DNA from: a virus
Lineage: Duplodnaviria > Caudoviricetes
IMG/VR virus record: IMGVR_UViG_3300048044_000016
Coordinates: 1 to 58,163 of that record
Direction: 5' to 3' (one strand)
Length of the DNA: 58,163 nt
A program made the translations under genes and the position numbers. The first letter of the stretch is position 1. Each line of letters begins with the position of its first letter. The notes beneath the pieces are model-generated. The model was given only the letters and a program-made list of their open reading frames with translations. It ran no database searches and had not been told where the DNA came from. Below are positions 770-57,938 of this stretch, piece after piece.

Positions 770-2893
770 TTAGTAAGTCGCGCAAATTGTAAGAGACAGT
801 CCTGCCGCCGTTGCGTCTGCCGTAGATGGGGCATAAACTTCGTATGCATTTCCAGCAGCGACACTTAAGCCGCTAGACCAGCTAAATGTTCCAATACTTG
901 CCGATGCAGCAAACGTGACAGTGCCAAAGCTAACACCATTGTAATCAAGATTAAATGTCGTACTTGCCGTCGCCGCATGAAGCAATCTTGCTTGTGATGT
1001 GCAAGATACACCTACCGCAGTTACTGTGCTATATAAAGTCATATTTACAGGAATTTGTAACCAACTAACTGCCGCAGATGAGGAATACACGCTATTACTC
1101 ATGTCGGAAAATCCGAGGTAGTGGACCATTGCTGAGATTGTGCCGCCAAGCGTTACTGCGTCAGTAAACGATGCAGTAGTGCCACTTAAAGCTCCAGTCA
1201 AACTTCCACCAGACAGCGGAAGGTAGCTTCCCAACGTAGAAGACAACACCACGTTTCCGCTTCCAGTGTAACCAGTGGTACTTAACGGAATTACTACGCC
1301 GTTGGAGTTGGAAAGGCTGGCGACAGTAACTGGATACAACATCGAAATACTACGCGTCTCGTTCGTATCTGCATTAGCTATGGTTAAAACAGAAGTCGGA
1401 GATGAACCACTTCCTACAATATTCGTAAATTCCCAATCTGAACTTATAGGTTGGCTAGTCGATGTAGAGTAATAGCTTCCCGCAATGTACAAGTTGTTAC
1501 TATTGTAGTTGGTCAACGAAGTTGCCGCCGCTTGCGGCCTGACAGTTACAGTACCATACAAATCAATGGTGTTTCCCGCTCCTGATGTCCCAAAAGTAGT
1601 GTTACCTGTAAAATTTGCCGTTGTTCCCGTCAAGCCTCCCGTCAATGTTCCACCAGACAGCGGAAGATAACTTCCTAATGTAGAAGACAACACTACACTC
1701 CCGCTGCCGGTCGTTGCAATATCTCCTAGAGTCCCTCCATTGTTATAAAGCACATGCCCAGTCGTGCTGCCGCTCACCGTGGTCGTGCCCACCGTAATGC
1801 CCGAAGTCGAAGCGGTAACAGTGCACGAACTGCCCAGTGTGCAGGTCTGCCCATTCACGGTTGTCGAAGTAGATGGCGTGCCAGTCAACTGACTATACGG
1901 CAGTGAGAGCGCCGACAGCGTCGTTAATGTAGAGTTTCTTGTCGCCGTGATATTAGCCGCTGTGCCTGTCGTGTTCTGGTTCCACGTTGGAACCGTACCT
2001 GACAAAGCCGAGTACGGAATGGTGGCGACTGTGCCAAGTGCTCCAGACGCGTTATTGGTCACGTAGCCAGCAGTGGTCAGCCCCGAATCCGTGATTCCAC
2101 CCGCATGTAGACTAGCGTTTGCCGACGCTGAGCCTAGATACACATCGGTTACGCTGCTGTTGCCGATAACCGCTGTGTTGCTCCCTGCTCCGATTGCGCT
2201 ATAGCCAATCACAATCTCGTTCGTATCGCTGGCAGCAGCAGCTTTGGTAAAGTTTCCTTCAAACACTGAATTGCTCGAATTGATATTTCCTGTCGTGCCG
2301 TCCGCAAGATACCAGCCAGATTGAAGCCCAATGGCAATGTTGGAGTTGCCGGTGGTGTTGTCATAGAGCGCAGTATACCCATTCGCGGTGTTGTCGGAGC
2401 CGGTGGTGTTGGAGAAGAGCGCATACATCCCATTCGCGGTGTTGTTGACGCCGGTGCCATTCAGGTTTCCCGCTCCACCAGAGTAGTAGTTATTGAGTGA
2501 TGTCTGCGACTGGAGAGCAGGAACCCCATTTAACAAAACACCGTTCGAACCTATAGTCGTTGGTGTCGCAGTGCCAGCCGCGACGGCGCCTGAGAACGAT
2601 GCGCTGGTGCCGTTGAGTGCGCCGGTCAGCGTGCCGCCCGTTGTAGGAAGATTTTTCACCCAACCAGAATTCGTACACTTGTACTCGACATTATTCGTCG
2701 TGTCCTGATAAGACTGTCCCCACTCTGCGCCATAAGGATAGACGGTGTAGTTTCCATTTTGCGTACAGGTGATCGTTGGCGCACCCGATCCAGTCAGAAG
2801 GTTCCATGCGACCTGATAGGTTGGATCAATTTGCGTCTGAGCAAACATAAGCGTGGAACTGATCAGGAAAAGCAGTGCGGCGAGTCGTTTCAT
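770..2893 (-). CDS. Tail fibre/adhesin-like protein with signal peptide and YadA-head-like repeats
   Basis: 707 aa, Gly/Thr/Ser-rich; NTANGxxALxxNTTG repeats; repeated YLPLSGGTLTG motif; directly downstream of baseplate J; starts MKRLAALLFLISSTLMFAQ. Confidence 0.65.
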   Translation of the reverse strand: MKRLAALLFLISSTLMFAQTQIDPTYQVAWNLLTGSGAPTITCTQNGNYTVYPYGAEWGQSYQDTTNNVEYKCTNSGWVKNLPTTGGTLTGALNGTSASFSGAVAAGTATPTTIGSNGVLLNGVPALQSQTSLNNYYSGGAGNLNGTGVNNTANGMYALFSNTTGSDNTANGYTALYDNTTGNSNIAIGLQSGWYLADGTTGNINSSNSVFEGNFTKAAAASDTNEIVIGYSAIGAGSNTAVIGNSSVTDVYLGSASANASLHAGGITDSGLTTAGYVTNNASGALGTVATIPYSALSGTVPTWNQNTTGTAANITATRNSTLTTLSALSLPYSQLTGTPSTSTTVNGQTCTLGSSCTVTASTSGITVGTTTVSGSTTGHVLYNNGGTLGDIATTGSGSVVLSSTLGSYLPLSGGTLTGGLTGTTANFTGNTTFGTSGAGNTIDLYGTVTVRPQAAATSLTNYNSNNLYIAGSYYSTSTSQPISSDWEFTNIVGSGSSPTSVLTIANADTNETRSISMLYPVTVASLSNSNGVVIPLSTTGYTGSGNVVLSSTLGSYLPLSGGSLTGALSGTTASFTDAVTLGGTISAMVHYLGFSDMSNSVYSSSAAVSWLQIPVNMTLYSTVTAVGVSCTSQARLLHAATASTTFNLDYNGVSFGTVTFAASASIGTFSWSSGLSVAAGNAYEVYAPSTADATAAGLSLTICATY

Positions 2894-2910
2894 GCTGAAG
2901 TCTCCTTAGT

Positions 2911-37122: not shown

Positions 37123-38390
37123 TGGACAACCAGAATGCACTGCAAGTTCAGGACACTGACAAACTGACCGAGTATCAAGAGCAAAGCATCTCCATGGTGC
37201 AGCAGCGGGAAAAGGCCAAGATCGAGTCTCGATACATCATGGCTTTGCGTCAACCGCGAGACAAAGACCTCACAGCAGTTCGCCAGAAGATGCTACGTGA
37301 ATGCAGCCGGCCTTCTTTCTGTGCTCCTGACATGAGCAAAAATGGGTCCAGCGTGGCAATCTACCGTATCCCTCGTGGAAGTGGAAGCAAGAGGGTCTAC
37401 ATCGAAGGCGTCACGATTCGTTTTGCAGAGATGGCAAAACGCTGCTACGGTCACATCTTCGTGGAAGTTACGCCGCTTGGCGAGGATGAGACACAGCAGA
37501 TTTATCAGGTTGAGGCGACCGACTATCAGAATAACGACGGCGGAAGCGAGATCGTGATTGTCCCGAAGCGCATTGAACGGAGTTACGCCAAGGATTCAGA
37601 TGTGGTCCTTTCAAAGCGAACAAACAGCAGCGGGGAGACAACCTTTACCATCATCCCAACCGATGATGAGCTATTGATGAAGCGGAACGCGCTGCTCTCA
37701 AAGGCTCGGCGCAATGTCATCATGGCCTGTATCGATGGATGGTTGGTCGAAGAGTGCAAAGCGAAGATTTGGGATACGGCGGCGGCCAAGGATGCGGAGA
37801 ACCCAGGTGCCGCAAAGACGGCTATCTTTGATGCCTTCGCATCCATCGGAGTATCAGCAGTACAGTTGAATGACTACCTTGGACACGCTGATTCTTTGAG
37901 TCCTGCCGAGCTTGACGAACTGCGCAGTCTGTACGGCGGTATCAAAGAGGGTTACACGACATGGGCAGAGATAGCGGCCAGCAAGGGCGAAGGCAAGGAC
38001 GACGGTTCAGCAGATCGCATCGAAGCGCTGGTCAAGGAACTGGAGTATACCCCCGCACAGGCCAGGACGAAGAAGGCAAAATATGCCGGTCGCCCGAAAG
38101 AGTTGATTGAGTGGCTTGAGGGTGAAGTTGCCAAGAAGCGCAACGACGGCGGCAAGCGCGAGAGCAAAACCCAGGAGGCCGACACAGCGAAGAATGGTAC
38201 GACAGAGACTTCGACTTCACAATCAACGGAACAGAAGACGGCGCAAACTGAGCAGAAGTCCACTCACCGCGAGTCGGCCGAACCGGAGCCACAGCAGGAC
38301 GCAAAGCAGTCGTGTCCTGTTGAGCAAGAGAAGCCAGCGGAGACGAAGAAGAGTGCGCCGCCGGCGAGCGATAGCTTCAATAACTGGTAA
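37122..38390 (+). CDS. Putative recombination/ssDNA-annealing-type protein
   Basis: 422 aa; A...PRD, YRIPRG..IEG.TIRFAE, SKARRN.I motifs; near a nuclease gene; function inferred from context. Confidence 0.5.
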   Translation: MDNQNALQVQDTDKLTEYQEQSISMVQQREKAKIESRYIMALRQPRDKDLTAVRQKMLRECSRPSFCAPDMSKNGSSVAIYRIPRGSGSKRVYIEGVTIRFAEMAKRCYGHIFVEVTPLGEDETQQIYQVEATDYQNNDGGSEIVIVPKRIERSYAKDSDVVLSKRTNSSGETTFTIIPTDDELLMKRNALLSKARRNVIMACIDGWLVEECKAKIWDTAAAKDAENPGAAKTAIFDAFASIGVSAVQLNDYLGHADSLSPAELDELRSLYGGIKEGYTTWAEIAASKGEGKDDGSADRIEALVKELEYTPAQARTKKAKYAGRPKELIEWLEGEVAKKRNDGGKRESKTQEADTAKNGTTETSTSQSTEQKTAQTEQKSTHRESAEPEPQQDAKQSCPVEQEKPAETKKSAPPASDSFNNW

Positions 38391-38907: not shown

Positions 38908-40227
38908 ATGAACGTACCTGCGCTGAGACAATCCGTAGAAGACAAGATGGCTTGCGAGTACGGCTATGCACTTGCTCACACAGACCTAGTTCAGATTGGA
39001 GGGGTCAAGTTCCCCTCCACTGAGCCAGGGGAGCGCGGCCAGGACGTTCACGCGGTGCTGGCGCCCTATGCCGAGCATTGCACGCGCAAGAAGGTGCCAG
39101 CAGACTTTGTTTATCTCGAATCACTATGCAAAGCTATCGGCGATGAAGCATGGAGCATTCTTGAGTCCTGCCGCGACAATCTAACCATCGACTGGCAGAA
39201 CTTCATGGGAGCCGAAATCTCCTTCGGACTTGACGAAGACTTCCGGCCGACTTGGAGCTATGACCACGATGGGAAGCGAGTCCCGATATGGCCGGGATGG
39301 GGAATTAAGGACTCTGGAAAAGAGCCTATCTACTGCGGCATTATCGATCAACTGTATGTGATGCCCGGCGGCCGGTTGGCACTCGTTCCTGACTGGAAAA
39401 CTCATCCCCGCCCATTCCAGGCCGATACCGTGCAAGGGAAGCGTTACGACCTTGCAGTCATGATGCACTTGCCCGAACTTACAGAGAGCGAGTTTTCTCT
39501 TCGCTTCATTCGCTACGCCAATGCGGTGACCACCAAGAAGTATTTCCGCTCGGACGTTCCTGACCTCATGGAAAACATGCGCAGAGCGCGGGCGCGCCAG
39601 GTTGCCATTCATGAGAAGGTAGCCAACACCGAACCGCTTCGGGCGCACGGCGGCGCTCACTGTACTTATTGCCCCTGCACCTTGAACCCCGTCGCCTATC
39701 CCTGCCCCATCATGAAACTGAATCCGAATCTCAACATGAGGCCGGAAGAGCGGCTGAACTGGAAGCTGGTTTACGGAGCAATGGCAGCGGTGAATGACAA
39801 GGTTCTGCATCAGTTGGTGGATGGATCAGGACTCGAAATCTACTCTCAGGATGCCAACGGCAAGGTATACAAGTACGGCCCAAAGCCATCAGAGGAGACG
39901 ACGGCCCCACTGTTTGTTCAGGACGGCAAAGGTGGATTCGCAATGCCCATCCTCGACGCGCTGATGGACTGGGCCAACGCTAACCCCAAGGACCTCATCC
40001 CGCGCAAGGGAAGCCGGCCATGGTTCTGCAACCTCCGCATTGGATGGTCGCAACTCAAGAGCTATCTCAAGGCCAACAAGCGCGAGATCATCCACAACAA
40101 GATAAAAGACCTCGTGACCGTCAAGACAACTGTAGAGTACGGAGTTACGCTGGAAGCGGAAGTCGATGACGGAGTGGAAGAGAAGAAACATTGGGACGCT
40201 TCGGGTCCTGATGAAATGGAGTTCTAA
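38908..40227 (+). CDS. PD-(D/E)XK Cas4/RecB-like exonuclease
   Basis: G..VH, E, GIID, DWKT motifs; C-terminal C..CP..C cluster. Confidence 0.75.
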   Translation: MNVPALRQSVEDKMACEYGYALAHTDLVQIGGVKFPSTEPGERGQDVHAVLAPYAEHCTRKKVPADFVYLESLCKAIGDEAWSILESCRDNLTIDWQNFMGAEISFGLDEDFRPTWSYDHDGKRVPIWPGWGIKDSGKEPIYCGIIDQLYVMPGGRLALVPDWKTHPRPFQADTVQGKRYDLAVMMHLPELTESEFSLRFIRYANAVTTKKYFRSDVPDLMENMRRARARQVAIHEKVANTEPLRAHGGAHCTYCPCTLNPVAYPCPIMKLNPNLNMRPEERLNWKLVYGAMAAVNDKVLHQLVDGSGLEIYSQDANGKVYKYGPKPSEETTAPLFVQDGKGGFAMPILDALMDWANANPKDLIPRKGSRPWFCNLRIGWSQLKSYLKANKREIIHNKIKDLVTVKTTVEYGVTLEAEVDDGVEEKKHWDASGPDEMEF

Positions 40228-40231: not shown

Positions 40232-40353
40232 TCGCGCGTCATCTTGGATGGACAAGACTGGCCAGCCTCGGGTTAGAGGGAGAGCGCCCGCAGTATACGA
40301 GGAACTACGGGGAAGTGCCTTCAGAGAGCCGGAATCAAGCCCGGCCCGCGCGA
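40232..40353 (+). ncRNA. tRNA-like structured element
   Basis: TCGCGCG/CGCGCGA closing stem, TCTTG..CAAGA arm, GCCGG-AATCAAGC-CCGGC T-arm-like hairpin; no canonical anticodon arm. Confidence 0.35.
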
Positions 40354-40379
40354 TTCAACCTTTCAGAAAGGGAACGACA

Positions 40380-42302
40380 ATGAAACTCAGCACCATCCAT
40401 CTTGAAGACTTTGGCCCATACGTGGACCAAACCGTCAACTTTGATCAGCCCCTCAACGTCATTCGCGGAGACTTAGCACAGGGCAAGACGAAGCTCTCGC
40501 AAGCCATCCAACTCAGCTTTGCCAAGATATGCGATGGCATCGACGGTAAAGGCTCCGGATTCCGTGACAAGATCCGTCTCGGGCAAGACAAGGCCATCAT
40601 CACCGCTGGTCTGGAAACTGCGCAGGGCACCATCCAAATCAGGACCACCTACGGACCCGGCAAGAGGGGGCGCGACTCTGTTGTGATTGCTGGAGAGGGC
40701 GGCAACGCTGTGAATCTTGCAGCCGGATTCCAGCAGTACCTTCAGCGCAGTGAGGAGCGTTTCTCTTGTGTCCTGGACTCGGAATACTTCACACGTCCCG
40801 GCACAGATCAGCGCGCCATCCTCGCATCGCTGGTGTTGCCAACACATCACGACTTCGACGCAAAGATGAAAGAGCTGGTCGAGAAGCATCTCGGCAAGGT
40901 CATCGACTGGAATGCGAGTCCTGTTGCCGTCATCGACAAGATGTTTGGAGACAAGAGCAGCGGCGTCTACAACGCCAGGACTCAGGCCAAAGCGGCTCTC
41001 GGCGCCATCTACATCCCACAGAAGCCAGTGCAACCTCAGTATCCTGCCGAGCTGGTCCAGCAGAAGCTACTGGCCTTGCGCGAGAAAGCTTCGCAGGAAG
41101 CGAAGAAGGTTAAGCGCTCTGGCACGGCGCAGACTGGCCGCATCGAGAAGGACATCGAGAACAAACAGAGCGACCTTCTCCTCCTCAACAACGACTACTC
41201 TGAGGCAATCAAGGAACGCGGAGCAATTGATTCACGGTTGCTTGATGGTCCTGAACTTGCCAAGCTCAAGCGCACACGCGACCAGCGATCGGCTTATGAC
41301 ACTCTTCAAACCGCTATCGATGCTTTCGCGCGCGAAATTCAGGGCATGAAGGATGCTCAGGAGATTTACGAAGGACTCCGCAGTGATGCCCATTGCCCTA
41401 CCTGCCATCAGGAGATCACTGCCAAGTTCATTGACGGCGAGATTGCCAAGCATAAGGAACTTGAGCAGCAGTCCGCGAAGTCTCAAAGTGAACTGATGAT
41501 GCAGCAAGCCGCACTCGGCAACATTACCGAGGCAGAAACAAAACTTGAGCATCATGAGCGCGATGTCGAGAAGAAACTGGAAAACGTCAAGCGCATCACT
41601 TCACTCTCCGAGAAGATCACGACAACCGAGAAGGCTATCAAGGTACTTGAAGCCTCCCTCGCAACTGCCAAGACTGCCGAGTCTGAGCCGGTCGATACGA
41701 CTGCGATCGATGCGGTGAACACTGAAATCAGCGAGTGGGAAGCAAGACTCGCGCCGGCAGTCCAGTACGAGTCAACCGTGACGCAGATCGAGACGGCTAC
41801 AAAGCAGTGGCAGGACAAGAAGAACGACGTGGACGAGTTGGAAACACTCTGCGAACACTTCGGCCCCAAAGGCATCAAGGCCACTCTTCTGCAGAATCAT
41901 ATCGGTGGGTTCAATGAGTCGGTGAATCGTGTCCTGAACTGGTGGGGATACTCGGCAACGCTCTCCTTTGAGCCCTACAGCTTCGACGTGGTGACGCCGG
42001 AGACTGCTCCGAAGACGCTTCCGGTCAAGGAACTGAGCGGTTCTGAGTTGTTCCGGTTCCTGGTGGCTCTCCAGTGCGCAATCTCCGTCTACTCCAAGAT
42101 CAAGATGGTTCTGATTGACAAGGCCGACATCCTGATCGACGCACACCGCGGAAAGCTCTTCGCGGGGGTAAAGCATCTGCTCGATACCGGGCTGTTGGAG
42201 AAGGCATTCATCTTTGTCGCTGACAAGCGGCGTGAGGCTCCGAAGCAAGAGGGAGTCGGGTTCTACCTGGTGGAGAAAGGAAAGGTTGAGAGACTTTCAT
42301 GA
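40380..42302 (+). CDS. SbcC/Rad50-like SMC-family ATPase
   Basis: IHLEDFG, GDLAQGKT Walker A, coiled coil with CPTC zinc hook, LSGSE signature, VLIDKAD Walker B variant. Confidence 0.85.
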   Translation: MKLSTIHLEDFGPYVDQTVNFDQPLNVIRGDLAQGKTKLSQAIQLSFAKICDGIDGKGSGFRDKIRLGQDKAIITAGLETAQGTIQIRTTYGPGKRGRDSVVIAGEGGNAVNLAAGFQQYLQRSEERFSCVLDSEYFTRPGTDQRAILASLVLPTHHDFDAKMKELVEKHLGKVIDWNASPVAVIDKMFGDKSSGVYNARTQAKAALGAIYIPQKPVQPQYPAELVQQKLLALREKASQEAKKVKRSGTAQTGRIEKDIENKQSDLLLLNNDYSEAIKERGAIDSRLLDGPELAKLKRTRDQRSAYDTLQTAIDAFAREIQGMKDAQEIYEGLRSDAHCPTCHQEITAKFIDGEIAKHKELEQQSAKSQSELMMQQAALGNITEAETKLEHHERDVEKKLENVKRITSLSEKITTTEKAIKVLEASLATAKTAESEPVDTTAIDAVNTEISEWEARLAPAVQYESTVTQIETATKQWQDKKNDVDELETLCEHFGPKGIKATLLQNHIGGFNESVNRVLNWWGYSATLSFEPYSFDVVTPETAPKTLPVKELSGSELFRFLVALQCAISVYSKIKMVLIDKADILIDAHRGKLFAGVKHLLDTGLLEKAFIFVADKRREAPKQEGVGFYLVEKGKVERLS

Positions 42303-43592: not shown

Positions 43593-43641
43593 GCAATGTT
43601 TGGATAACATCACAATTCTAACCAACCGAAAGAGGTGATTC

Positions 43642-43962
43642 ATGGCAGCAAAAGTGCAACCGACGAAACTAACGACGTTCTTTGAGGGGCACCGTCGCAA
43701 ATGCTTCCTCGTCCAGTGGATTCAGCATTGCAACCGTGCAGGCGTCTCGACGATCAAGCTCGACATGCAGCTCCCGTTGCTCAACCAGTCGCTTATCGGG
43801 ATGAACGACGAGATCGGCGAACCGTTCGGCCTCATGGCCAAGAACGACAGCAAGACGGAGCGTTCGGCGATCAATGTCGAGATCGAGGGCATGACGCTGG
43901 ACATCTTCTCCACCGAGACACCAGCAAAGACCACTGGGTATCGACAACCGGCGCCAAGCTGA
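43642..43962 (+). CDS. Hypothetical protein (possibly N-half of a frameshifted gene)
   Basis: GAGG RBS; 106 aa. Confidence 0.55.
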   Translation: MAAKVQPTKLTTFFEGHRRKCFLVQWIQHCNRAGVSTIKLDMQLPLLNQSLIGMNDEIGEPFGLMAKNDSKTERSAINVEIEGMTLDIFSTETPAKTTGYRQPAPS

Positions 43963-44321
43963 TGAAGCTGTATCTGGCCACGGTGGGCGAAGGCGAGAAG
44001 AAGGAAGTCAACCTGCACATGGCGATATATGTCCCGTTCACCAAAGAGATGATGGAATGGGCAGCGATCCACTTGCACAAAGACTTCTACATCGAAACGG
44101 TGTACTCCAACTCGGAATCGAAGCTGGCCTTCGCAACGGCCGATGAGACGGAACTAGTGGACGACGATACGGAAGACGGCGAGAGTCCTGAAGAGGGCGA
44201 GGACGAACCGGAGCTTGACCCGGATGCCCAGGACGACATTCCATTCGAGACGCCGCCACCCGAGGGGAAATCAGGACCCGAAAAGCTGGCCGCTTACCAC
44301 CTAAACCACAACACAGATTGA
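43962..44321 (+). CDS. Hypothetical acidic protein (possibly C-half of a frameshifted gene)
   Basis: TGATG coupling; acidic tail with DDIPF. Confidence 0.55.
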   Translation: MKLYLATVGEGEKKEVNLHMAIYVPFTKEMMEWAAIHLHKDFYIETVYSNSESKLAFATADETELVDDDTEDGESPEEGEDEPELDPDAQDDIPFETPPPEGKSGPEKLAAYHLNHNTD

Positions 44322-45274: not shown

Positions 45275-45740
45275 GCAGGAGAGAGCGTGTTATTTGGCCT
45301 ATCCCCGCCACGTGGCCCCCGCCGCTGCTATCAAAGCCATTCGGAAGGCGGTTGATCGGCTCCGCAGAGGGTGCGATGAGTATGTCGCCATGAACTCCGA
45401 GACGGCCAGGCGGTTCCTATGGAAGAAAGCAACCGAGTACGCCAGGTCGCCAGCGGGACAAAAGCCGCCAGGACACGAAGACTACCGCCCTCACCCCGCA
45501 ACATGGTTCAATCAAGAACGCTATTTTGATGATCCTGCCGAATGGCAGAAACCGAACGGAGCAAGCAATGGAAAGCAGACTGGTACGAAAGCAGACCGGA
45601 CAGTTGATGCAGTCAGAGCCGCTGTCTCCCAAGCAGCAGATCATAGTCGCCCTCGGGACACTGGCATTGATGAGGGGCGGCGAGTACAGCCAGGCGACAC
45701 TGACAGCCTTTTCGGAAGGACTATCGAAGGAACCGTTTGA
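45261..45740 (+). CDS. Replication-initiator C-terminal-like protein
   Basis: YPRHV...A.KA and PHPATWFNQERY.D motifs. Confidence 0.6.
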   Translation: MTPSEQERACYLAYPRHVAPAAAIKAIRKAVDRLRRGCDEYVAMNSETARRFLWKKATEYARSPAGQKPPGHEDYRPHPATWFNQERYFDDPAEWQKPNGASNGKQTGTKADRTVDAVRAAVSQAADHSRPRDTGIDEGRRVQPGDTDSLFGRTIEGTV

Positions 45741-46089
45741 GGATGTGATTGCAACCATCCAAAAGATCGCAGAGAGCCCGCGGCGTGACCGGGAAACCGC
45801 GTGTCCTGACTTCGGTACGCTTTTGGTGGCCATCCGGTCCATCCGGCACCCGCAAAGGCACCTGAGAGGCATTGTGGCGAAACTGGCGCGCATCTTTGGC
45901 GTGACGGCCGATGAGGAACTGCTCTCGCTGTACGAGGAGCGCGCCGGACACAGGACAGATCAGGACATGGATACGGCTTATCGAGTTCTGAGCCAGGATG
46001 AAACGCTGAAGAGGATGCCCACGCCGGCTGCTTTTCTCAGCGCGTGCGGCGTTCCGAAAGTCTACCGGGATGGGACGAGGCCGGAATGA
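45568..46089 (+). CDS. Putative helicase loader-like protein
   Basis: GGAG RBS; duplicated helical module ending in MPTPA; position before DnaB. Confidence 0.45.
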   Translation: MESRLVRKQTGQLMQSEPLSPKQQIIVALGTLALMRGGEYSQATLTAFSEGLSKEPFEDVIATIQKIAESPRRDRETACPDFGTLLVAIRSIRHPQRHLRGIVAKLARIFGVTADEELLSLYEERAGHRTDQDMDTAYRVLSQDETLKRMPTPAAFLSACGVPKVYRDGTRPE

Positions 46090-46346
46090 GGTATCTCTCC
46101 CTATTCAGCGGCCTTGAGGGTGCGACCCTTGCTTGGCATCATCTCGGATGCAATTGTCTTTCTACTCCACATAGCACTCCATTCAAAGGGGTTTGCAGAC
46201 AAAAAGGTTCGAAAACTTTTCGTGTACAGATCGGAGCGCATGGAGTCAAGCACTACCTTGGAATGTCGAAAACGGCAGAAGATGGAGCCCGAATTTACGA
46301 TGAGGCCGCAAAAAGATTGCACGGAGAATTCGCATGGACGAACTGA
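46086..46346 (+). pseudogene. Chimeric remnant: C5-cytosine MTase N-terminus fused to an AP2 domain
   Basis: MRYLSLFSGLEGATLAW (MTase motif I) then FKGV..F.VQI..YLG..TAEDGAR.YDEAA..LHGEFA..N (AP2). Confidence 0.7.
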
Positions 46347-47683
46347 GACTTGATTCCGTTTGCAGTATTGACTGTGAGCGCACAGTTTTAGGATCGATAT
46401 TACTCGATAATGAGGGATGGGGTGAAGTAACAGATAAGATAAGACCGTCTGATTTCTTTCTCGATAGCCATCGTCGTATTGCTATAGCAATGTCAAGTTT
46501 ATTGAAGAATAATCATGCAGTTGACATCATTACGTTAGCAAATGAACTTAATTCTCGCCACGAGATTGAAGCAATCGGAGGAGTTTCCTATCTGGCCTCG
46601 TTGACCGAAGGTTTGCCGCGACGACCAGTGATTGAAGAGTATCTACGTGTAATCAAAGACAAGTCGATGCTGCGGAGTTTGATAGTCCTGTCAAGCGATG
46701 CAATCCAGCGGGCTCAGGACCAGAGCGAAACGGCGCTTGAGGTTGCTGCGGATATATCCGGCAAGATCGAGAAACTAGTAGAGCCTGGGATGCAGTCCAA
46801 CAGTGCACTGGCAAGCACGTTCATTGTTGACACCTTGGCAGACATTGACCGCGAGTATCAGACGAAGACGAGCCCGTGTATCCCATCAGGGAATGCATGG
46901 TTCGATGCAAAGACTGGAGGCGGATACAGGCAAGCAAACATCACGCTCATTTGCGCTCGACCGAACGTAGGAAAAACGCCATGGGCCGTCATGAGCATCG
47001 CTCACAACCTCAAGTTGGGCCGCAAGTGTGTCCTGTTCTCGCTCGAAAAGAAGAAAGAGTCTATCCTCCGTGACCTGGTTCCGTATTTCGTCAACGTTCC
47101 GAACCACGTAGTCAACAATGCTTGGATGCAGACGCCAGAGCAGAATGCGCTTATCCATGAGGGAATGGAGAGGCTTGCCGAGTGCAGTCACTTGCTCAGC
47201 ATTTACGACCAAAAGATGGACCGTGAGCAAATATGCTGGGCGATCAAGCGCGAATCGAAGGACGGCCAGGAAGTTCTCTTTGATCTTGACCACTTCGGAA
47301 TGGTTAAAGGATCAGGACACGGAGAAGATCCTATCGAGCGCGACAACCTCACATCGGCTGCTATCCGAGACACAATCAAAGAAACCAACAGCGCAATCGT
47401 GGTCCTACGCCAGTTAAAGAAGGTAGCTCGTGAGTTTGAAGGGCAAGCGCCTGTTCCAAACGACGTAAAAGGATCAGGAAATTCTTGGGAGGATGCCTTT
47501 GCGGCAGTCATCATCCATCGGGCAATCGATGGGGAAACAAAGCGGATGTCGCGCTCAGTAGATCTCAACCTTGCGAAGCTCCGTACTGGCGGCTCAACAG
47601 GATCAACGAAAGGAAACTTTAACGTACAGAACCTTTGCTTTGAAGCCGATGCGGAACAGGACTCGGAGAGTTACTATGAGTGA
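46334..47683 (+). CDS. dnaB: Replicative DNA helicase, DnaB family
   Basis: ERTVLGSILLD..DFF..HR N-domain; ARPNVGKT, FSLE, DH, QL, KGSG..EDA, AKLR.G. Confidence 0.92.
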   Translation: MDELRLDSVCSIDCERTVLGSILLDNEGWGEVTDKIRPSDFFLDSHRRIAIAMSSLLKNNHAVDIITLANELNSRHEIEAIGGVSYLASLTEGLPRRPVIEEYLRVIKDKSMLRSLIVLSSDAIQRAQDQSETALEVAADISGKIEKLVEPGMQSNSALASTFIVDTLADIDREYQTKTSPCIPSGNAWFDAKTGGGYRQANITLICARPNVGKTPWAVMSIAHNLKLGRKCVLFSLEKKKESILRDLVPYFVNVPNHVVNNAWMQTPEQNALIHEGMERLAECSHLLSIYDQKMDREQICWAIKRESKDGQEVLFDLDHFGMVKGSGHGEDPIERDNLTSAAIRDTIKETNSAIVVLRQLKKVAREFEGQAPVPNDVKGSGNSWEDAFAAVIIHRAIDGETKRMSRSVDLNLAKLRTGGSTGSTKGNFNVQNLCFEADAEQDSESYYE

Positions 47684-47976: not shown

Positions 47977-48332
47977 TTGCTCGCAGGACTCCACTGAAAC
48001 GCTACACGCCAGTACGCAAGAAGCGGCCAGGAGTGCGCAAGGGGCAGCCGACTAATGCGGAAAAAGAGACTGAGCACGAACGGGTTTATGAACGATGCGG
48101 CGGACAATGCGAGTTACGGGGAGAGGATGGAAATCCTCTGCATCCAAAGCACATCTTCGGAGTCCTGCCAAGCAAGGGAAGCATCTTTGAGCGCTGGCAC
48201 CTTGTCCACCTCCACGGGAAGCGCCGATTCGGTTGGACGGAAGCGGACGGCAATACGTTACTTGGAGGTTGCTATTGGTGCCACATCGTAGCCAGTCACC
48301 AGCAAGGAAAGAAAATACAGGAGGTTCGATGA
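47973..48332 (+). CDS. Degenerate HNH-like/Cys-His protein
   Basis: RRTPLKR N-terminus; R..G.CE..H...N....C..CH. Confidence 0.5.
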   Translation: MIARRTPLKRYTPVRKKRPGVRKGQPTNAEKETEHERVYERCGGQCELRGEDGNPLHPKHIFGVLPSKGSIFERWHLVHLHGKRRFGWTEADGNTLLGGCYWCHIVASHQQGKKIQEVR

Positions 48333-48661
48333 TCTATCTTGCAAGCCCGTACAGCCACATGGATAGGACCGTAGAAGCGCTCCGCTTCGGAGAGGTTTGC
48401 CGCATTGCCGGAGTCTTGATGTCGCGAGGATTGATTGTCTTCAGCCCTATCGCGCACACCCATCCAATCGCTGAACGATGCGACCTGCCGCGCGGGTGGG
48501 ACTACTGGAAGCATTTCGATGAGGAATTCATCGACGCATCGGAAAAGGTTATAGTCGCCATGATGCCAGGATGGGAGCAATCCAAAGGGATTGCGGGAGA
48601 AATCAGGATTGCCAAAGAAAAGGGCATTCCGGTCGAATATCTGGACCCGAATAAACCTTGA
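48329..48661 (+). CDS. DUF1937 / nucleoside deoxyribosyltransferase-like protein
   Basis: MIYLASPYSH..FSPIAH.H..GWEQSKG...E..A...GIPV. Confidence 0.8.
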   Translation: MIYLASPYSHMDRTVEALRFGEVCRIAGVLMSRGLIVFSPIAHTHPIAERCDLPRGWDYWKHFDEEFIDASEKVIVAMMPGWEQSKGIAGEIRIAKEKGIPVEYLDPNKP

Positions 48662-48687
48662 TAACCGACAACCATTTGCTTTATAAT
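48658..48687 (+). promoter_or_regulatory. Promoter of the MTase gene
   Basis: TTGATA-N18-TATAAT followed by AAAGGA RBS. Confidence 0.6.
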
Positions 48688-48711
48688 CACCACACATCGA
48701 AAGGAAAGATC

Positions 48712-49689
48712 ATGACGCTTAAAGCACCGTTTCCTTGGTTCGGCGGAAAGAGTAAGGTATCGGATATTGTCTGGGAACGATTCGGCGATGTGCAGAACTA
48801 CGTCGAGCCGTTCTTTGGCTCTGGAGCGGTCCTGTTAGGAAGGCCAACCGACGCCGGTATTGAGACAGTCAACGATCTTGATTGCATGGTTGCAAACTTC
48901 TGGCGTGCGTTACAGCATGATCCTGATGCTGTGGCCGACGCTGCCGACTGGCCTGTAAATGAGGCAGACCAGCACGCTCGGCATTTATGGCTGTGCTCTC
49001 AAGCAGAGTTTCGCGAAAACATGAAGGTAGACCCGGAGTTTTATGATGCAAAAATCGCAGGATGGTGGGTATGGGGACAATGTATCTGGATTGGCTCAGG
49101 ATGGTGCTCAGTGCAGCTACCGCACCTTGGGAACGCGGGGCGCGGAGTAAACCGTCAGCTACCGCACCTTGGGAACGCGGGGCGCGGAGTAAACCGTAAG
49201 CTACCGCACCTCGGGGACGCGGGAACGGGCGGCGACGAATGCCTAAGCGACCGCACCTTGGGAACGCGGGAGTTCCTGTTTCAGTACATGAACGAACTGG
49301 CAGATCGCTTGCGCCGAGTGCGGGTGTGCTGCGGAGATTGGTCCCGAGTCTGCGGCCCTTCGCCAACGGTCAAGCTGGGACTTACGGGCGTCTTCCTCGA
49401 TCCTCCTTACATGGATGGACGTACAGATGCGCTTTACTCCTCAGACAGCCTCATAGTAGCGAACGATGTACGAGAATGGGCAATCGCGCAGGGTGATGAT
49501 CCTAGAATCAGGATTGCGTTATGCGGATACGAAGGCGAGCACCAGATGCCGGATTCTTGGGAATGCGTGAAATGGAAAGCTCGCGGAGGATATGGATCAC
49601 AGGGGAACAACTTAGCCAGAGAAAACTCCACCAAAGAGCGCATCTGGTTCAGTCCGCATTGCATCGTTTCTCAACCGAATTTGTTCTAA
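48712..49689 (+). CDS. DNA adenine methyltransferase (Dam/D12-like)
   Basis: PFPWFGGKS, YVEPFFGSGAV, ETVND, FLDPPY motifs. Confidence 0.9.
   Translation: MTLKAPFPWFGGKSKVSDIVWERFGDVQNYVEPFFGSGAVLLGRPTDAGIETVNDLDCMVANFWRALQHDPDAVADAADWPVNEADQHARHLWLCSQAEFRENMKVDPEFYDAKIAGWWVWGQCIWIGSGWCSVQLPHLGNAGRGVNRQLPHLGNAGRGVNRKLPHLGDAGTGGDECLSDRTLGTREFLFQYMNELADRLRRVRVCCGDWSRVCGPSPTVKLGLTGVFLDPPYMDGRTDALYSSDSLIVANDVREWAIAQGDDPRIRIALCGYEGEHQMPDSWECVKWKARGGYGSQGNNLARENSTKERIWFSPHCIVSQPNLF
49114..49270 (+). repeat. 42-bp tandem repeat inside the MTase
   Basis: CAGCTACCGCACCTTGGGAACGCGGGGCGCGGAGTAAACCGT x2, a partial third copy, and an out-of-frame partial copy at 49250-49270. Confidence 0.85.
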
Positions 49690-49707: not shown

Positions 49708-52700
49708 TCAATCGAGCTTCTGCGGGGTGACGTCCTTCTCCCAATCGAACTTCGCTGGCATCAAGATTCCCTGCTCCGTGCCGCCCTCATGCTTTGTGAA
49801 CGTGATAATTCTCCCCTTGCTGCCCGGCTTCAACTGCCCATAAGCTCCCAAGAGATTGCCTGAAATGATCTTCGCGCGTTGCCGAGTGTCGCTTAGATAG
49901 TCCTGAAACAGTTCGGCAATATCCGCATTGAGCCCAAGGTTAGAGAGCGTGATCTTCTTGATCTGTGAGCCCGGAACGCGCACCTCGCGCAATGGGCCGT
50001 TGACCGCAATGTAGAACTTCAGAGAGCTGGGAGCGTAGGGGTTTCCGCTCACTTTCTTGCGGCCGCGAATGTCGTAGATGATGCCGTTGTAGGTGTCGCC
50101 GTTGATCTCGATTCTGAGTCCTGTTCCCATTCGGAAGTCGTTCAAGATCGTCTGCGACCATTCCCGTATTTTCTGTGCCCGGTCAAAGATGTGCGGCGCT
50201 TCCACGGATGCGATGTACGGCTTGAACAAGCTCTCAAGGTGTGCGCTCAATGCTCGTGCGTGGTACGTGTCCCGCTGCCATGGCTCAAACTCCATGAGAT
50301 CAGGACCATAAGTCTGTGCAATCAGTTCCTCGACCTCTTCCGGGGTGTAGGACTTGCCTTGACGCTTGATTGAGTAGGTTCCGAAGATGGCATCTTCCCC
50401 GAATGGCGATGAAGGATCAGACCCAACATATATGACGTGCGAGGTCTTCTGCTCTGCATCGAAGTCGTAGGTTTTGGGCTCAAGGTCATTCTGTCCGGTT
50501 TCGTCGATGTAGGCGATGTAGTCCGTGTAGCTTTCGGTGATCGTCTCCATGAACTCGCGCTGCTCTTTGACGGGAAGCAATGCCGAGCGTCCTGTTGCCG
50601 TGCGCGCCAGGTCCTCCTCTGGAGTACCCCCTTCCTCTTCCGACTTGTCCATCGTGAGGCCCATGAGACGGGCAATCTGCTCATTCTCGTGCAGCCATTC
50701 CGCCACGATCTTGTCGCCGTACTTGTTCATCATGTCTGGCGCCTCAATCGACATTGCCGACCGCGTGTTGCTCGACGTGTTGGCGTTCAGGCTCTTCAGT
50801 TTCTTGGCGAGGCTGATGGCCGGGCGAATCTCTGCGGGGATGGCCAGGGAGAGCATCGTGTACCTTGGCAGGACCATCTGGCCGGTCCTGTTCGAACGTC
50901 CGAGGATCTGCATGAACACGTTCACGTCGCCGGCCGGCTGGGCAACGATCATGTGCCGCTGGTGCTGATCTTTGAATTTCTCTGAGGCGTGGAGGCTGAT
51001 TCCCGTCGATCCAGCCTGGTTCAAGATGAGGCAGTCAACGCCGCCATTATTAAACAGGCTGCCGGTCTGCACGCGGTCCTTGCGCTCGATGGACGGGACC
51101 GAAGACAGGACCGGGACGGGACCCGCATAGTTGATTCGGTAGGAGCGCCCGGTGATCTCTGCCACAGTAAAGCCAGCTTGCGTGATGCGAGTCCTGATCC
51201 AGTCGATAGGCGACACTGGCAACGTCACCGCAAGGGCGTCCAGCAGCCTCTCAGCCTCCCGGTACTTCGCTTCTGTCTCGACGTACAGCCGATGGCGCGG
51301 GAACTCTTGGCGGTCATTGCCCATTAAGGTCTTGATGGTGTAGTGGAGGGTCCTGTCGAGCGCGCGCCTGAGTATGGTGGACCATGAGAGTTTATCAAGC
51401 ACTTCACCCTCGCTCATGTTCTCAGCGCTCACATAGCTGTCGAGGAACGCTCCCATGGTGCTCTCAAGGGCCACAATCGGCTTTTCCCTGCGTCCGAGCG
51501 CTTCGATGGCGCAATCCGCCGCAGCGTCCGACTTCAGGGCCAGGAGAAATTGCTTCACGATGTTGTGGACGATGGCGCTGAACTTGTGGTGATAGATCTT
51601 GATGTGCCGCTTCTTGTACTGGAGGCGCAACGTCTCGAAGTCGTTCTGGTGATAGTCCTGATCCGCTTTGAAGATGGCCCGCAGGACCTCCGTCACATCG
51701 TCGCATACCTGCTCTTGATAAAGCTGATTTCGGTCGTCAATGAAGTTCAGGATGCTGATGCCCTCAAAGGACCGCTCACGGCGCACGAGTTGGCCGGTCT
51801 GGGCGAGTTGGTGGCTCACGACGGTCTGTAGGGGTGGACCGCCGGCGCGGATGGCGTCAGAGACGCGCTGGTTGTCGGGAATGGCAATCGAGATGTCTGT
51901 CTTGGTCGCGTAGAGCGTCATGTTGTCCGGCCGCTTCGCCCACGTTGCCGACAGGAACATCACGCCGTGCGCCGCGGGCAGAACCTCTTGGAAGAATGCT
52001 CCCGTGTTCGAGTCATCGCCGCCAGCGTTGTGGGACTCATCCAAGATGAAGACAGCTTTCGGTGCCAACTTCGCAAGGGCCAACTGCTGGATGTTGATCG
52101 TGTTGATTTGCGAGTAGGTCAGATATACGGCATTGCGGGCGCGGGGAAGCTCGCCGGTCTCAGCAATGCGGGTCAGGATCCCCTTCATGCTGCTCTTGTT
52201 GGCGAATATCTTGCGTCCTGTTGCCTGCTCGGTTATCGACGCCCCGGCATTGAAGAGCAGCGGCCAGACGCTCAGCCCGAATCCGATGTCGTCAAGATCG
52301 CGCTGGAAGTCGGTGAAGAGGGTATCCGAGTAGGTGACGAAGATCGGCAACAGACCGTGAAGAATGGTCCACCGGCAGACAGACGCCGCGCAACGACCCT
52401 TCCCGACGCCGGTCTGGTCGGAGTTTATTAAAGCCTTTTGTTTTCTGATCTGCCATATGGCCAGAGCAATGGAATCGACCTGAAGACCCATGAAGTAGCC
52501 CTGCATCTCCTTGACCGAGGGGTACTCCAGTTCGCGGGCCACGAACTCATCCAAGTCGCCAACCTCGGTGCGCACCCGCTCCATGGCCTCCCGCATCGGC
52601 TCTTTCATCGACCGCGGGCACATCACTGCTTCATCTTGGAGGCTGGAAAGTGAGGCGTAGACCTCTTGATAAGCGTTCAGGTTCTCGACAGGACGCTGAA

Positions 52701-52746
52701 TCCGAGTCCTGCGGTTGAGTAGCAATAGTCTGGTTGATAAGTCCAT
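49708..52746 (-). CDS. Strawberry-notch-type SF2 helicase/NTPase
   Basis: 1012 aa; DQTGVGKGR, TYSQ, ILDESHNA, FLSAT.AKRP, AEITGR, AGSTGISLHA, Q.LGR.NRTGQ. Confidence 0.88.
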   Translation of the reverse strand: MDLSTRLLLLNRRTRIQRPVENLNAYQEVYASLSSLQDEAVMCPRSMKEPMREAMERVRTEVGDLDEFVARELEYPSVKEMQGYFMGLQVDSIALAIWQIRKQKALINSDQTGVGKGRCAASVCRWTILHGLLPIFVTYSDTLFTDFQRDLDDIGFGLSVWPLLFNAGASITEQATGRKIFANKSSMKGILTRIAETGELPRARNAVYLTYSQINTINIQQLALAKLAPKAVFILDESHNAGGDDSNTGAFFQEVLPAAHGVMFLSATWAKRPDNMTLYATKTDISIAIPDNQRVSDAIRAGGPPLQTVVSHQLAQTGQLVRRERSFEGISILNFIDDRNQLYQEQVCDDVTEVLRAIFKADQDYHQNDFETLRLQYKKRHIKIYHHKFSAIVHNIVKQFLLALKSDAAADCAIEALGRREKPIVALESTMGAFLDSYVSAENMSEGEVLDKLSWSTILRRALDRTLHYTIKTLMGNDRQEFPRHRLYVETEAKYREAERLLDALAVTLPVSPIDWIRTRITQAGFTVAEITGRSYRINYAGPVPVLSSVPSIERKDRVQTGSLFNNGGVDCLILNQAGSTGISLHASEKFKDQHQRHMIVAQPAGDVNVFMQILGRSNRTGQMVLPRYTMLSLAIPAEIRPAISLAKKLKSLNANTSSNTRSAMSIEAPDMMNKYGDKIVAEWLHENEQIARLMGLTMDKSEEEGGTPEEDLARTATGRSALLPVKEQREFMETITESYTDYIAYIDETGQNDLEPKTYDFDAEQKTSHVIYVGSDPSSPFGEDAIFGTYSIKRQGKSYTPEEVEELIAQTYGPDLMEFEPWQRDTYHARALSAHLESLFKPYIASVEAPHIFDRAQKIREWSQTILNDFRMGTGLRIEINGDTYNGIIYDIRGRKKVSGNPYAPSSLKFYIAVNGPLREVRVPGSQIKKITLSNLGLNADIAELFQDYLSDTRQRAKIISGNLLGAYGQLKPGSKGRIITFTKHEGGTEQGILMPAKFDWEKDVTPQKLD

Positions 52747-56800: not shown

Positions 56801-56804
56801 CACC

Positions 56805-57938
56805 CTAGTAGCGGTAAAAGGCGAGATGCGTGGACGTGGGCGGCGGGGCAATGGTGTAGGTGATTGTTGCACCGCTCAAGGTGAAGTCAACTCCCGGCTT
56901 CAGGACTTGCCATCCGCGGTAAAGCCGAAGACTGGCGGCGGGATTCGGGGCTTGCGGCAACGTAAAGACTTTGTTGGTCCCGTTCAGCGTTCCGGTCGGG
57001 GTAATCCAATCCGCAAAGTTCGGTTCAGTTCCGCTTCCGGCGTAGGTTCCCCACGCAAGGAATGACGCGCTGCCGATCGGCACAGAGGGAACAATGATGT
57101 TCCCGTCGAGAATGTAGTAGTCATCGCCAGACTGAACGAAAACCGAATCGAGCAGACAGCGCGCTGGCTTGAAGAAGTTGATGATCGTGGCCATGTAGCC
57201 GAGTTGCGCTGGGGACGCCCCTATGCTTTGAAACATTCCGTTGCGGTAGAGTTCGATGGAAATCAGAGCATCTGGCAGTACCAGATTCGACCCCGAGACG
57301 GTGGGTACAACGGCATCGAAGTAGAGCGGCGTCCCGTCCGTGGCCTTGCGCATCAGGACACACAACGAGGAATTCAGCGCGGGAGCAAAGGACATCGTGA
57401 GTCCTGTCCCGGATGACGTGTAGTCAACTCCTGGGCGTTGCAAGAGCCCGTTGTAGAAGACGCGGAGAGAACTTCCCACTGGAATTGAGGGGAGACTGAA
57501 TACGCGGTTGCTTCCGTCGATTACTCCGATGGGTGATTGTCCCGACCCGCTCACTCCCACGCGGAATACTGCCCACCCTTGGCTCGCGGGATACGATGAT
57601 CCACCCCATGATGCTTGTCCCTCGTAGCATGTCGCATTAAATCCGCACAAGCTAAGAGCCTGAACGATTGCCCCCGGCGTGCCCATGATCTTGTGCAGCG
57701 GTAGAGCGTTTTGAATGATGGTTTGTGAGGTGACGCCCAGGGCCTGCATCAGGACGCTGGGAATCATCATGTCGAGTTCCCATATCAAGTAGGGCAGGAT
57801 GGATGCGGGGAGATTGCTGCCTAGCGTCCTGATAAGCAAAGGCGTGAGGTCGATGGACTCAAGGCGCGCAGAGAGTTGCATGTGGGCTTGGGTGCGGAGG
57901 TCATTGATAGATGATGCGGGCCTGAGATTGTTTGCCAT
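56805..57938 (-). CDS. Baseplate/tail protein I (P2 gpI-like) with repeated Ig-like C-terminal modules
   Basis: LPYL.WE, I.NA..LH..MGTP.AI..AL, INFFKPAR..L motifs; two G..DG.N.VF.LP..SLR...G..Q.PGVD modules. Confidence 0.85.
   Translation of the reverse strand: MANNLRPASSINDLRTQAHMQLSARLESIDLTPLLIRTLGSNLPASILPYLIWELDMMIPSVLMQALGVTSQTIIQNALPLHKIMGTPGAIVQALSLCGFNATCYEGQASWGGSSYPASQGWAVFRVGVSGSGQSPIGVIDGSNRVFSLPSIPVGSSLRVFYNGLLQRPGVDYTSSGTGLTMSFAPALNSSLCVLMRKATDGTPLYFDAVVPTVSGSNLVLPDALISIELYRNGMFQSIGASPAQLGYMATIINFFKPARCLLDSVFVQSGDDYYILDGNIIVPSVPIGSASFLAWGTYAGSGTEPNFADWITPTGTLNGTNKVFTLPQAPNPAASLRLYRGWQVLKPGVDFTLSGATITYTIAPPPTSTHLAFYRY

Follow-up and report, generated by a model that had tools for sequence, protein, structure and literature searches.

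Several systems are known in which one DNA word recurs many times in a genome. Stoperators, the L5 repressor sites of cluster A mycobacteriophages, are 13 bp long, number about 30 per genome, lie mostly in intergenic DNA and point in one direction relative to transcription. The DNA uptake sequence (DUS) of Neisseria, the uptake signal sequence (USS) of Pasteurellaceae and the palindromic HIP1 of cyanobacteria are words of bacterial chromosomes, tied to competence or to methyltransferase/repair pairs. The sites of MmeI-family and PglX enzymes (single-strand-modifying restriction or BREX-type) are asymmetric 6-7-mers ending in AC, and phages are expected to lose restriction sites, not to gain them. 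Phages enriched in the recombination hotspot word Chi were reportedly described by Bobay et al. in 2013. Examples given in a later study are E. coli phages LLS and P1, with GCTGGTGG, and Pseudomonas phage MD8, with GCTGGCGC; according to that study, known phages with a recombination module of their own lack enrichment of the host Chi, and enriched phages have neither such a module nor a RecBCD inhibitor (Zheng et al. 2025, PMC12315714). Here we describe the asymmetric word TCAGGAC/GTCCTGA, with which a 58,163-nucleotide IMG/VR virus record (IMGVR_UViG_3300048044_000016; Duplodnaviria, Caudoviricetes) is crowded from end to end. The whole record, referred to below as the window, is the complete genome of a myovirus in one 58,163-bp contig. 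Most likely, it serves the phage as a recognition signal, not yet described, on its own DNA.

From base composition, the word is expected 7.6 times in the window (GC content, 55.5%), and dinucleotide-preserving shuffles contain it 8.80 ± 3.15 times. The exact count is 93 (on the plus strand, 41 copies read TCAGGAC and 52 read GTCCTGA), a number that none of 100 shuffles reached (largest, 19). This corresponds to one copy per 625 bp, or 16 per 10 kb. The six-base core CAGGAC is present 173 times, compared with 34.1 expected from composition. All 93 heptamers and most of the cores lie within 2702..57832 on both strands, the first heptamer being at 2702 and the last at 57826-57832. An earlier reading of the window, made by a model from the letters and their open reading frames (ORFs) and called here the sequence-only reading, had come close with 91 copies (41 and 50). 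All 14 of its example coordinates were confirmed, as were its 7-8 expected copies and the surplus of CAGGAC/GTCCTG cores that it described, while its eyeballed GC content of ~57% was too high.

The bases around the core indicate what the enriched unit is. At position -1 of the 173 CAGGAC copies, T occurs 93 times, A and G 34 times each and C 12 times, and C-preceded copies are at the level of the synonymous-shuffling null (11 compared with 11.2). Weak preferences are also seen for c at -3, a at -2, C at +7 (100/173) and A at +10 (84/173), giving the logo c(-3) a(-2) T(-1) CAGGAC t(+6) C(+7).. A(+10), a flank pattern that recurs in a relative of the phage, G001. Under synonymous shuffling, the octamer CAGGACTC is tenfold above the null in the window (34 compared with 3.3). 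What is enriched is a hexamer, CAGGAC, flanked by graded preferences; the sequence-only reading had taken the heptamer itself as the unit.

If codon or dipeptide usage alone produced the word, and the DNA carried no signal, its frequency would be expected to survive codon-aware shuffling. CAG, GAC, GTC and CTG are common codons, and such an origin was assessed with 74 window ORFs, which are crude longest-ORF calls constrained to three strand blocks and not a curated annotation. These ORFs hold 83 of the 93 heptamers, compared with 12.6 ± 3.4 in 200 within-gene synonymous-codon shuffles (a 6.6-fold excess; maximum, 23) and 7.6 ± 2.5 in codon-order shuffles (maximum, 15), and they hold 154 copies of CAGGAC compared with 42.0 ± 4.9 under synonymous-codon shuffling. 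The enrichment thus persists under the codon-preserving nulls by which the sequence-only reading had proposed to judge it. In sense orientation, TCAGGAC occurs 48 times (11, 16 and 21 copies in frames 0, 1 and 2) and GTCCTGA 35 times (18, 15 and 2 copies, frame 2 reading TGA). Every non-stop frame and both coding-strand orientations are occupied, and ten heptamers lie outside the ORFs, in agreement with the several frames, intergenic copies and both orientations reported in that reading. The number of positions at which the encoded protein would tolerate the heptamer is ordinary (172, compared with a median of 171 for 40 permuted control words), as a by-product of codon usage would have it. 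However, 81 of these positions (47%) are filled, compared with 8 (about 5%), and never more than 19%, for the control words, which indicates that the word has been written by silent codon choice. Even the rare Arg codon AGG is used in the nTC-AGG-ACn frame at 16 of 26 opportunities. Moreover, a relative with similar proteins, G003, lacks the enrichment (27 copies of CAGGAC compared with 33.2 expected). The signal resides in the DNA itself, which excludes a codon artefact; we give the by-product explanation a negligible probability.

Copies that are maintained are expected to be better conserved than other sequence of the same length. A comparison with 50,697 deposited phage records gave no DNA match to the window, and the best match of its terminase in these records has 34% identity. 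A complete relative, G001 (59,278 bases), has most genes in common with the window at 70-95% protein identity, and the two can be aligned over 40,795 positions with 84.1% identity. Of 79 aligned word sites, 56 are kept in G001 (56 of 76 from the side of G001), whereas 36.9% of all background heptamers and 37.5% of GC-matched ones are kept (binomial p = 9e-10). At these rates, positions within the word change about three times slower than average. Comparison of the two genomes thus supports the view that the copies are kept by selection or an equivalent force, as the sequence-only reading had anticipated when it proposed positive selection or biased repair.

The copies are spread over the whole window, with 5 to 11 in every 5-kb bin and near-random overall spacing (coefficient of variation (CV), 0.91). 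Genes are read from the minus strand at 1-34.6 kb and 49.7-58.2 kb and from the plus strand in between, and the word has 51 orientation runs compared with 46.8 expected, so that no polarity is seen along the window. This lack of polarity had been noted correctly in the sequence-only reading, which took it to rule out a Chi-like signal. That exclusion is invalid, since the Chi-rich headful phage P1 carries 50 Chi sites of which 31 are forward and 19 reverse. In a permuted genome, balanced orientation is therefore compatible with a Chi-like role.

If the lineage writes the word into its genome gradually, imported DNA is expected to be less saturated. A tblastn-type comparison of the window proteins showed that G001 lacks the window's D12 adenine methyltransferase, DUF1937 gene, TnpB and AAA ATPase. 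Window-only genes, with no counterpart in G001, have 11 of 65 CAGGAC opportunities filled, compared with 141 of 367 in shared genes (Fisher p = 0.0007). One of them encodes an intact IS605-type TnpB (32624..33811, minus strand); there is no CAGGAC in 32586-33848, and none of the five opportunities of the gene is filled, consistent with a recent insertion. The closest relatives of this TnpB are 85% identical to it. A further word-poor island is formed by the fibre-position genes g01 and g02 (171..2893, minus strand), which are poorly conserved in G001; the first 2700 bases hold a single CAGGAC.

Lower saturation of recent imports, like saturation through silent changes, would also be produced by neutral molecular drive, in which biased repair or conversion makes copies from near-copies and the word has no function. 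Such drive has been proposed for very-short-patch repair and for HIP1. It would also fit the raised transition neighbours of the word (TCGGGAC, 24 copies, and TCAGGAT, 22, compared with about 6-9 expected) and the rarity of three other neighbours (TTAGGAC, 2; TAAGGAC, 3; TCCGGAC, 1). However, the rare neighbours are otherwise explicable because they contain TAG, TAA or a palindrome, and the 30 window proteins scanned with Pfam include neither a Vsr-type endonuclease nor a cytosine methyltransferase (about 40 small or structural ORFs lie outside that scan). In addition, the weak flank pattern extends over 14 bp and is reproducible in three genomes, which suggests a protein footprint. We consider functionless drive very improbable.

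A lineage-specific signal is expected to be confined to one phage clade. When viral contigs and genomes were scanned with the capsid protein, 70 loci were returned. All 29 with a capsid identity of at least 95% carry 10.0-27.5 copies of the word per 10 kb, whereas all 41 with an identity of at most 70% carry 0-3.4. In whole records, the heptamer is found 88 times in G001 and 82 times in G002, but 7, 8 and 2 times in G003, G004 and G005. The word is thus enriched in one phage clade and absent from its relatives, a distribution that is shared by Chi-like words, which are short, asymmetric and clade-limited. Ranking of words against composition had raised the possibility that each lineage of the capsid family has a word of its own, but this fails under synonymous shuffling, where the top z-scores are 17-19 in full genomes of the TCAGGAC clade and 4-6 in the other capsid relatives. 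L069 is a partial exception (CAGCTCA, 15 compared with 1.9; TGGCCAA, 24 compared with 6.5).

With a codon-aware null, TGGCCAA (often TTGGCCAA) and CAGCTCA are moderately enriched in L069, L250, L260, L262, L241, L242, L246, L254 and L264 (for example, 27 compared with 6.6 in L250 and 18 compared with 3.6 in L260). These contigs have a GC content of about 0.48-0.54 and include a 59.7-kb contig binned with a Moraxellaceae metagenome-assembled genome (MAG). In the putative host bin of L069, a distant relative, TGGCCAA occurs 2.1 times per 10 kb, compared with about 11 in the phage contig.

The word is not restricted to one virion type. The window has a contractile-tail gene set, with tail sheath, portal, large terminase and head protease/capsid genes, and also encodes a DnaB helicase and an SbcC-like ATPase. 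Viral contigs were scanned for CAGGACTC copies lying close together in pairs, which returned at least 119 stretches, mostly chance or tandem repeats, and among them a 12.5-kb locus (L188) of G434, a complete 68,396-bp record that is structurally unrelated to the window. The locus shows no DNA similarity to the window. G434 contains 178 copies of CAGGAC, 163 of them in ORFs compared with 48.3 ± 5.4, and 42 copies of CAGGACTC compared with 3.0. Its logo, R(-1)-CAGGAC-t-C..A, shares C at +7 (107/178) and A at +10, with a different base at -1 (G 95, A 57, T 17): GCAGGAC accounts for 95 copies, and TCAGGAC is scarcely raised (16 compared with 9.4). A strand bias in G434 (108 compared with 70) was considered as a sign of polarity and rejected, being explained by coding-frame limits and gene direction.

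Eight window proteins have matches in G434, namely seven early proteins and one weak fibre-domain match. The seven comprise g51 (37122..38390, plus strand), a possible single-strand annealing protein (SSAP) of 422 aa that is 46% identical to its G434 counterpart and falls in phrog_3657, a family to which no function is assigned there; g53 (38908..40227, plus strand), a 439-aa PD-(D/E)XK nuclease (PF12705, E 3.1e-06; 55% to G434 and 89% to G001); g54 (40248..42302, plus strand), a Rad50/SbcC/SMC-like ABC ATPase of 684 aa (46%); g58 (43701..44321, plus strand), of 206 aa, whose C-terminal 130 aa are 53% identical; g60 (45526..46089, plus strand), of 187 aa, directly upstream of DnaB, in which the C-terminal ~70 aa match at 45%; g62 (46334..47683, plus strand), a DnaB-family replicative helicase (44%); and g66 (49708..52746, minus strand), a strawberry-notch (Sno) type superfamily 2 (SF2) helicase of 1012 aa (58% over 995 aa), which is the last gene of the minus-strand fibre/lysis block. 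The word-free G003 has versions of g51, g53, g54 and g62 that are only 25-29% identical, and no tblastn match to g58, g60 or g66 was found in it. G434 thus shares both the word and the seven early proteins, whereas G003 lacks the word and has only distant versions of four of them, so that the word travels with the early module across two virion types.

Family and structure searches give these proteins uneven identities. g54 matches Rad50, archaeal SMC-related and RecF models, all below curated cut-offs, and is LmuB-like in a defence library; library scans found no family for g58 or g60. From its position only, g60 may be guessed to be a helicase loader, and its N-terminal half is not conserved between the window clade and G434. 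The g51 family has 2078 viral representatives (E <= 0.001) and is uncharacterised. The predicted model of g51 is confident (pLDDT 82.8), but a Foldseek search of this model against the PDB gave no match at E <= 0.001. Weak matches in BFVD are to ERF, Rad52, Bet and Sak3 proteins (E 3e-3 to 0.1), and the nearest named Atlas clusters, Rad52, Sak and RecT, score only 0.79-0.81, so that its role as an SSAP is a lead from modelling. Sequence searches of g51, g53 and g66 against solved structures yielded nothing usable. Together, g51, g53 and g54, next to DnaB, resemble a phage module for recombination and end processing.

Taken together, the facts require a reader at the DNA level, with a six-base core, a footprint of about 14 bases and indifference to orientation at genome scale. 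It must also matter enough to the phage for half of the silent opportunities to be taken up. Our tentatively preferred explanation, which we regard as possible and well short of probable, is a Chi-like word that is read by a DNA-processing machine inherited with the early replication/recombination module. (T, A or G)-CAGGAC-n-C would be recognised on double- or single-stranded phage DNA by a phage-encoded machine, with g51, g53, g54, g58, g60, g62 and g66 as candidate components. At a chromosome end or break, such a machine would meet a correctly oriented copy within about 1 kb, and there it may switch, as at Chi, from degrading or unwinding to recombination-dependent replication. Host DNA, in which the word would be present at chance frequency only, would not be spared. 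A bolder form of this idea, to which we give a little less credence, is a phage-private Chi: the mobile module would carry its own word, and phages that adopt it would be selected to rewrite their genomes silently as 'own'. Word and reader would then co-evolve, giving rise to clade dialects such as T-CAGGAC, R-CAGGAC and c.GCAGGA.

Since DnaB and the adjoining g60 are part of the shared set, the word could alternatively be a replication signal, either a start for priming or a loading site for DnaB or its loader on either strand. Each strand has one copy per 1.1-1.4 kb, and the minus-strand CAGGAC copies of the window are evenly spaced (CV 0.64, P < 0.001, within a range of 0.64-0.75). GTCCTG also contains CTG, the template triplet of E. 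coli DnaG. Known primase sites, by comparison, have three to five specified bases. However, even spacing is missing from the plus strand (CV 0.95), from G001 and from G434, and the N-terminal half of g60 differs between the clades while the core word is the same. No primase or polymerase gene was seen among the scanned window proteins; this weighs for a replication signal, and the lack of a primase also speaks against primase sites. A replication signal is in our view improbable.

A modified self-mark is expected to be accompanied by one modifying enzyme in all carriers of the word. The window encodes a D12-class N6-adenine DNA methyltransferase, g65 (48658..49689, plus strand), identified by family matches and convergent with g66, within a locus (48233-49689, plus strand) that also contains the DUF1937 gene. 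G001 carries 88 copies of the word without g65, which eliminates this enzyme as a common writer. At the same locus, G001 has instead a 787-aa fusion of a SNF2 helicase and an N6_N4 methyltransferase (G001 43588-45951, L074:16189-18552, minus strand). In both genomes the replacement is non-orthologous and always convergent with the Sno helicase gene. No methyltransferase was seen among 11 proteins scanned in G434. Thus, no single modifying enzyme is common to the window, G001 and the scanned proteins of G434. It is unlikely that the two enzymes, not being orthologous, recognise the same seven bases, and a common mark is therefore not written by a phage methyltransferase. The sequence-only reading had inferred a self-mark or protein-coating code. 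As a class this remains the best explanation, while modification by the phage's own methyltransferase, one of the forms it suggested, is unlikely.

The locus is also relevant to the possibility that an injected protein with an anti-restriction or DNA-modifying role, namely the Sno helicase (a relative of the P1 DarB helicase) or an associate, loads at the word or takes it as its target. Incoming DNA would then be protected the better the more sites it has. The Sno helicase is the best-conserved of the proteins common to G434, and there it lies in the middle (about residues 1950-2555) of a giant protein of 3896 aa (51684-63374, L200:685-12375, plus strand). Giant proteins of this kind are known to be placed in phage virions. 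In the window, g66 closes the late fibre/lysis block, a methyltransferase gene converges on the helicase gene in both the window and G001, and the P1 record annotates DarB as a methyltransferase plus helicase directed against type I restriction. On the other side, the methyltransferases of the locus are non-orthologous (D12 and N6_N4), with none in the scanned G434 proteins, and we know of no target-word enrichment for DarB. The giant G434 protein also contains a 2'-5' RNA ligase-like domain at 813-932, and its remaining ~3000 residues have no Pfam match.

A Sno helicase that reads the word is expected to co-vary with it. This was assessed with a Sno-helicase profile scan of viral contigs. CAGGAC is the top hexamer in all 11 analysed loci with a Sno identity of at least 92%. 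Of five loci at 57-58%, four show a 3.2-3.7-fold excess of it, and the fifth is L222. In all 54 loci at 41% or less, CAGGAC is at expectation, with none above about 1.9x. Within the Sno gene itself, silent CAGGAC opportunities are filled at 14/28 in the window, 15/31 in G001, 8/24 in G434, 9/21 in L218 and 8/19 in L221, compared with 3/23 in L214 (71% identical to the window), 1/15 in L222 (57%) and 10/137 in six distant genes pooled (word clades against L214, Fisher p = 0.005). A conserved N-R-T is written AAC AGG ACC in carriers and AAT CGG ACT in L214, and a conserved V-L is written GTC CTG in carriers and GTT CTC in L214. L214 and L222 therefore speak against the Sno helicase as the reader, and we exclude it provisionally on the strength of these comparisons. 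An injected protein acting at the word is accordingly given a low probability.

The L214 sequence is only 7.9 kb, with no larger relative found. A different word was considered for it, TGGCAGA, which is strong against composition (12 compared with 1.0) but weak in the codon-aware comparison (9 compared with 3.0 ± 1.1). In L222 (an IMG/VR contig of 22,973 bases), which is related to the G434 group, the top hexamer is GCAGGA (58 compared with 18.8), with a preference for G at -1 and C at -3, no preference after CAGGA and no final C. From this pattern, c.GCAGGA reads as a shifted dialect of the word.

The strongest competitor of a phage-encoded reader is Chi of the host, that is, a hotspot word of RecBCD or AddAB in a peat bacterium that the phage accrues against degradation and for recombination. 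Known Chi words are G-rich, which the CAGGAC word is not. Otherwise its properties, short, asymmetric and clade-specific with graded flanks, are those of Chi, and phages LLS, P1 and MD8, with the Chi words of their hosts, provide a precedent. The slight variation between phage clades (T or R at -1, and c.GCAGGA in L222) resembles that of Chi among related bacteria, two structurally unrelated phages have the same core, and L214, a close Sno relative, lacks the word as it might after a host switch. A 6-kb stretch of the window was found in sequencing runs in 20 rows from 17 studies, two of which rows may be the source of the window itself. The run labels are peat or permafrost metagenomes, save for one unlabelled row (X20). 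This habitat record covers the window only, and such a habitat offers many candidate hosts.

If the word is host Chi, it is expected to saturate the genome of the host. Such saturation was sought in 401 evenly drawn Pseudomonadota genomes and in 25 further genomes from the order of the densest of them, and none exceeded 3.2 copies per 10 kb, compared with 16 in the phage; this sample is limited to one phylum, centred on three MAGs with distant capsid relatives, and the phage host is not identified. A metagenome scan with TnpB yielded no word-rich contig, the closest TnpB-bearing contigs, which may not be from the host, having at most 1.8x the composition expectation. TnpB relatives at 79% identity or more point to no host. 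Nor do relatives of the window's cold-shock protein (38613-38906, plus strand; family search), which are phage-like matches and 60-65% matches across several phyla. The density of one copy per 625 bp, with 47% of permitted positions filled, is three times that of known Chi-rich phages. In addition, the Chi study links recombination genes in lambdoids to few Chi sites (PMC12315714), and the phage appears to own end-processing and recombination genes, provisionally a nuclease, a Rad50-like ATPase and a weakly called SSAP. We judge host Chi to be a serious but still unlikely explanation.

A phage reader is preferred over host Chi because the word co-occurs with the shared module in two unrelated virion types, and because the phage has a recombination-type module of its own, of the kind that goes with few Chi sites in lambdoid phages. 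This preference is modest, and several observations weigh against it. The assignment of g51 as an SSAP is weak. The seven shared genes diverge in parallel and their comparison singles out none, and profile scans with the g53 and DnaB alignments returned only the same two clades. The Sno helicase, the best-conserved candidate, fails to track the word in L214 and L222, and these two loci show that similar phage proteins do not prevent a change of the word. Copy spacing shows no consistent regularity (CV 0.83-0.88 in G001 and 1.1-1.4 in G434). To our knowledge, no Rad50-type or SSAP-type phage system is under the control of a DNA word. Finally, the two clades could share the word by infecting related hosts and swapping modules there.

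Several other features of the genomes were recorded. A second heptamer, TTGATAA/TTATCAA, is enriched genome-wide in the window, e.g. at 3995-56748 (23 in ORFs compared with 5.6 ± 1.9 under a codon-aware null). It is also the top word of the CAGGAC-free relative G003 (16 compared with 3.6) and of L056 (18 compared with 0.9 from composition), and on this basis is an older, family-wide signal, probably a regulatory one. An ORF of 305 aa with a Mu F-like domain (26765-27682, minus strand; PF04233, E 2.2e-07) lies just downstream of the portal gene (27490-29163) and overlaps its 3' end; word copies 27395 and 27448 are inside this region, which is partly uncalled in the 74-ORF set. Family searches identified a ferritin/Dps-like protein whose N-terminus is extended by 86 aa (33855-34535, minus strand) and a PF04447 dATP/dGTP pyrophosphohydrolase (43020-43592, plus strand), neither of which has a match in G003 or G434. 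No tRNA genes were found in the window. In G001, an extra ORF of 256 aa (706-1476, minus strand) lies between the Rha/ANT gene and a small HTH gene, and its N-terminus, as read by eye from the sequence, resembles a PP-loop/PAPS-reductase-type motif.

In the open-access literature, we found no description of the CAGGAC/TCAGGAC word, nor of any phage genome in which it abounds. New here are the seven-gene early-module link across virion types, the dialects, the less-saturated imports and two exclusions, that of a methyltransferase and the provisional one of the Sno helicase. If a phage-encoded reader exists, the word would be the first viral self-recognition code written across all genes, it would provide a handle on the very common early-protein family of g51, and it would explain the cost that such phages bear in rare codons. 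If the word is instead host Chi, it would reveal the Chi of an uncultured peat bacterium and allow phages to be linked to hosts from sequence. In either case, the word can serve as a clock, given the visibly lower saturation of imported genes.

The word resembles each of the known systems in part. Like DUS, USS and HIP1, it occurs about once per kb, on both strands, in all frames and at permissive positions, with lineage-specific dialects; unlike them, it is carried by a virus, and no matching host was found among the Pseudomonadota sampled. Length, asymmetry and the ...GGAC ending are those of MmeI-family and PglX sites, from which it differs in being enriched, in having flanks graded over 14 bp and in the lack of a conserved methyltransferase. 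With stoperators it shares dozens of asymmetric sites distributed genome-wide, and the reader of stoperators is a phage-encoded protein. However, stoperators are intergenic and co-oriented, whereas here a 6-bp core has 93 to 173 copies, which lie within genes in about 90% of cases (83/93 heptamers in ORFs) and in both orientations (48 and 35 in sense). The window does encode small helix-turn-helix (HTH), ribbon-helix-helix (RHH) and Rha/ANT proteins, none of which is among the seven proteins common to G434. The closest likeness is to Chi-enriched phages as described by Zheng et al. (PMC12315714). As there, a short asymmetric word is the most frequent of its length, far above chance and not driven by codons, is found in some phages and missing in close relatives, and, as with Chi in P1, occurs in both orientations. 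In cos phages Chi is polar and clustered near one end, whereas the window word is uniform. In Chi-enriched phages, host RecBCD as the reader and enrichment in the host are established, and here there is a candidate reader only. Their density is about one site per 1.9 kb, compared with one per 0.6 kb in the window, and they are without recombination modules, whereas the window encodes a nuclease and a Rad50-like ATPase and may encode an SSAP.

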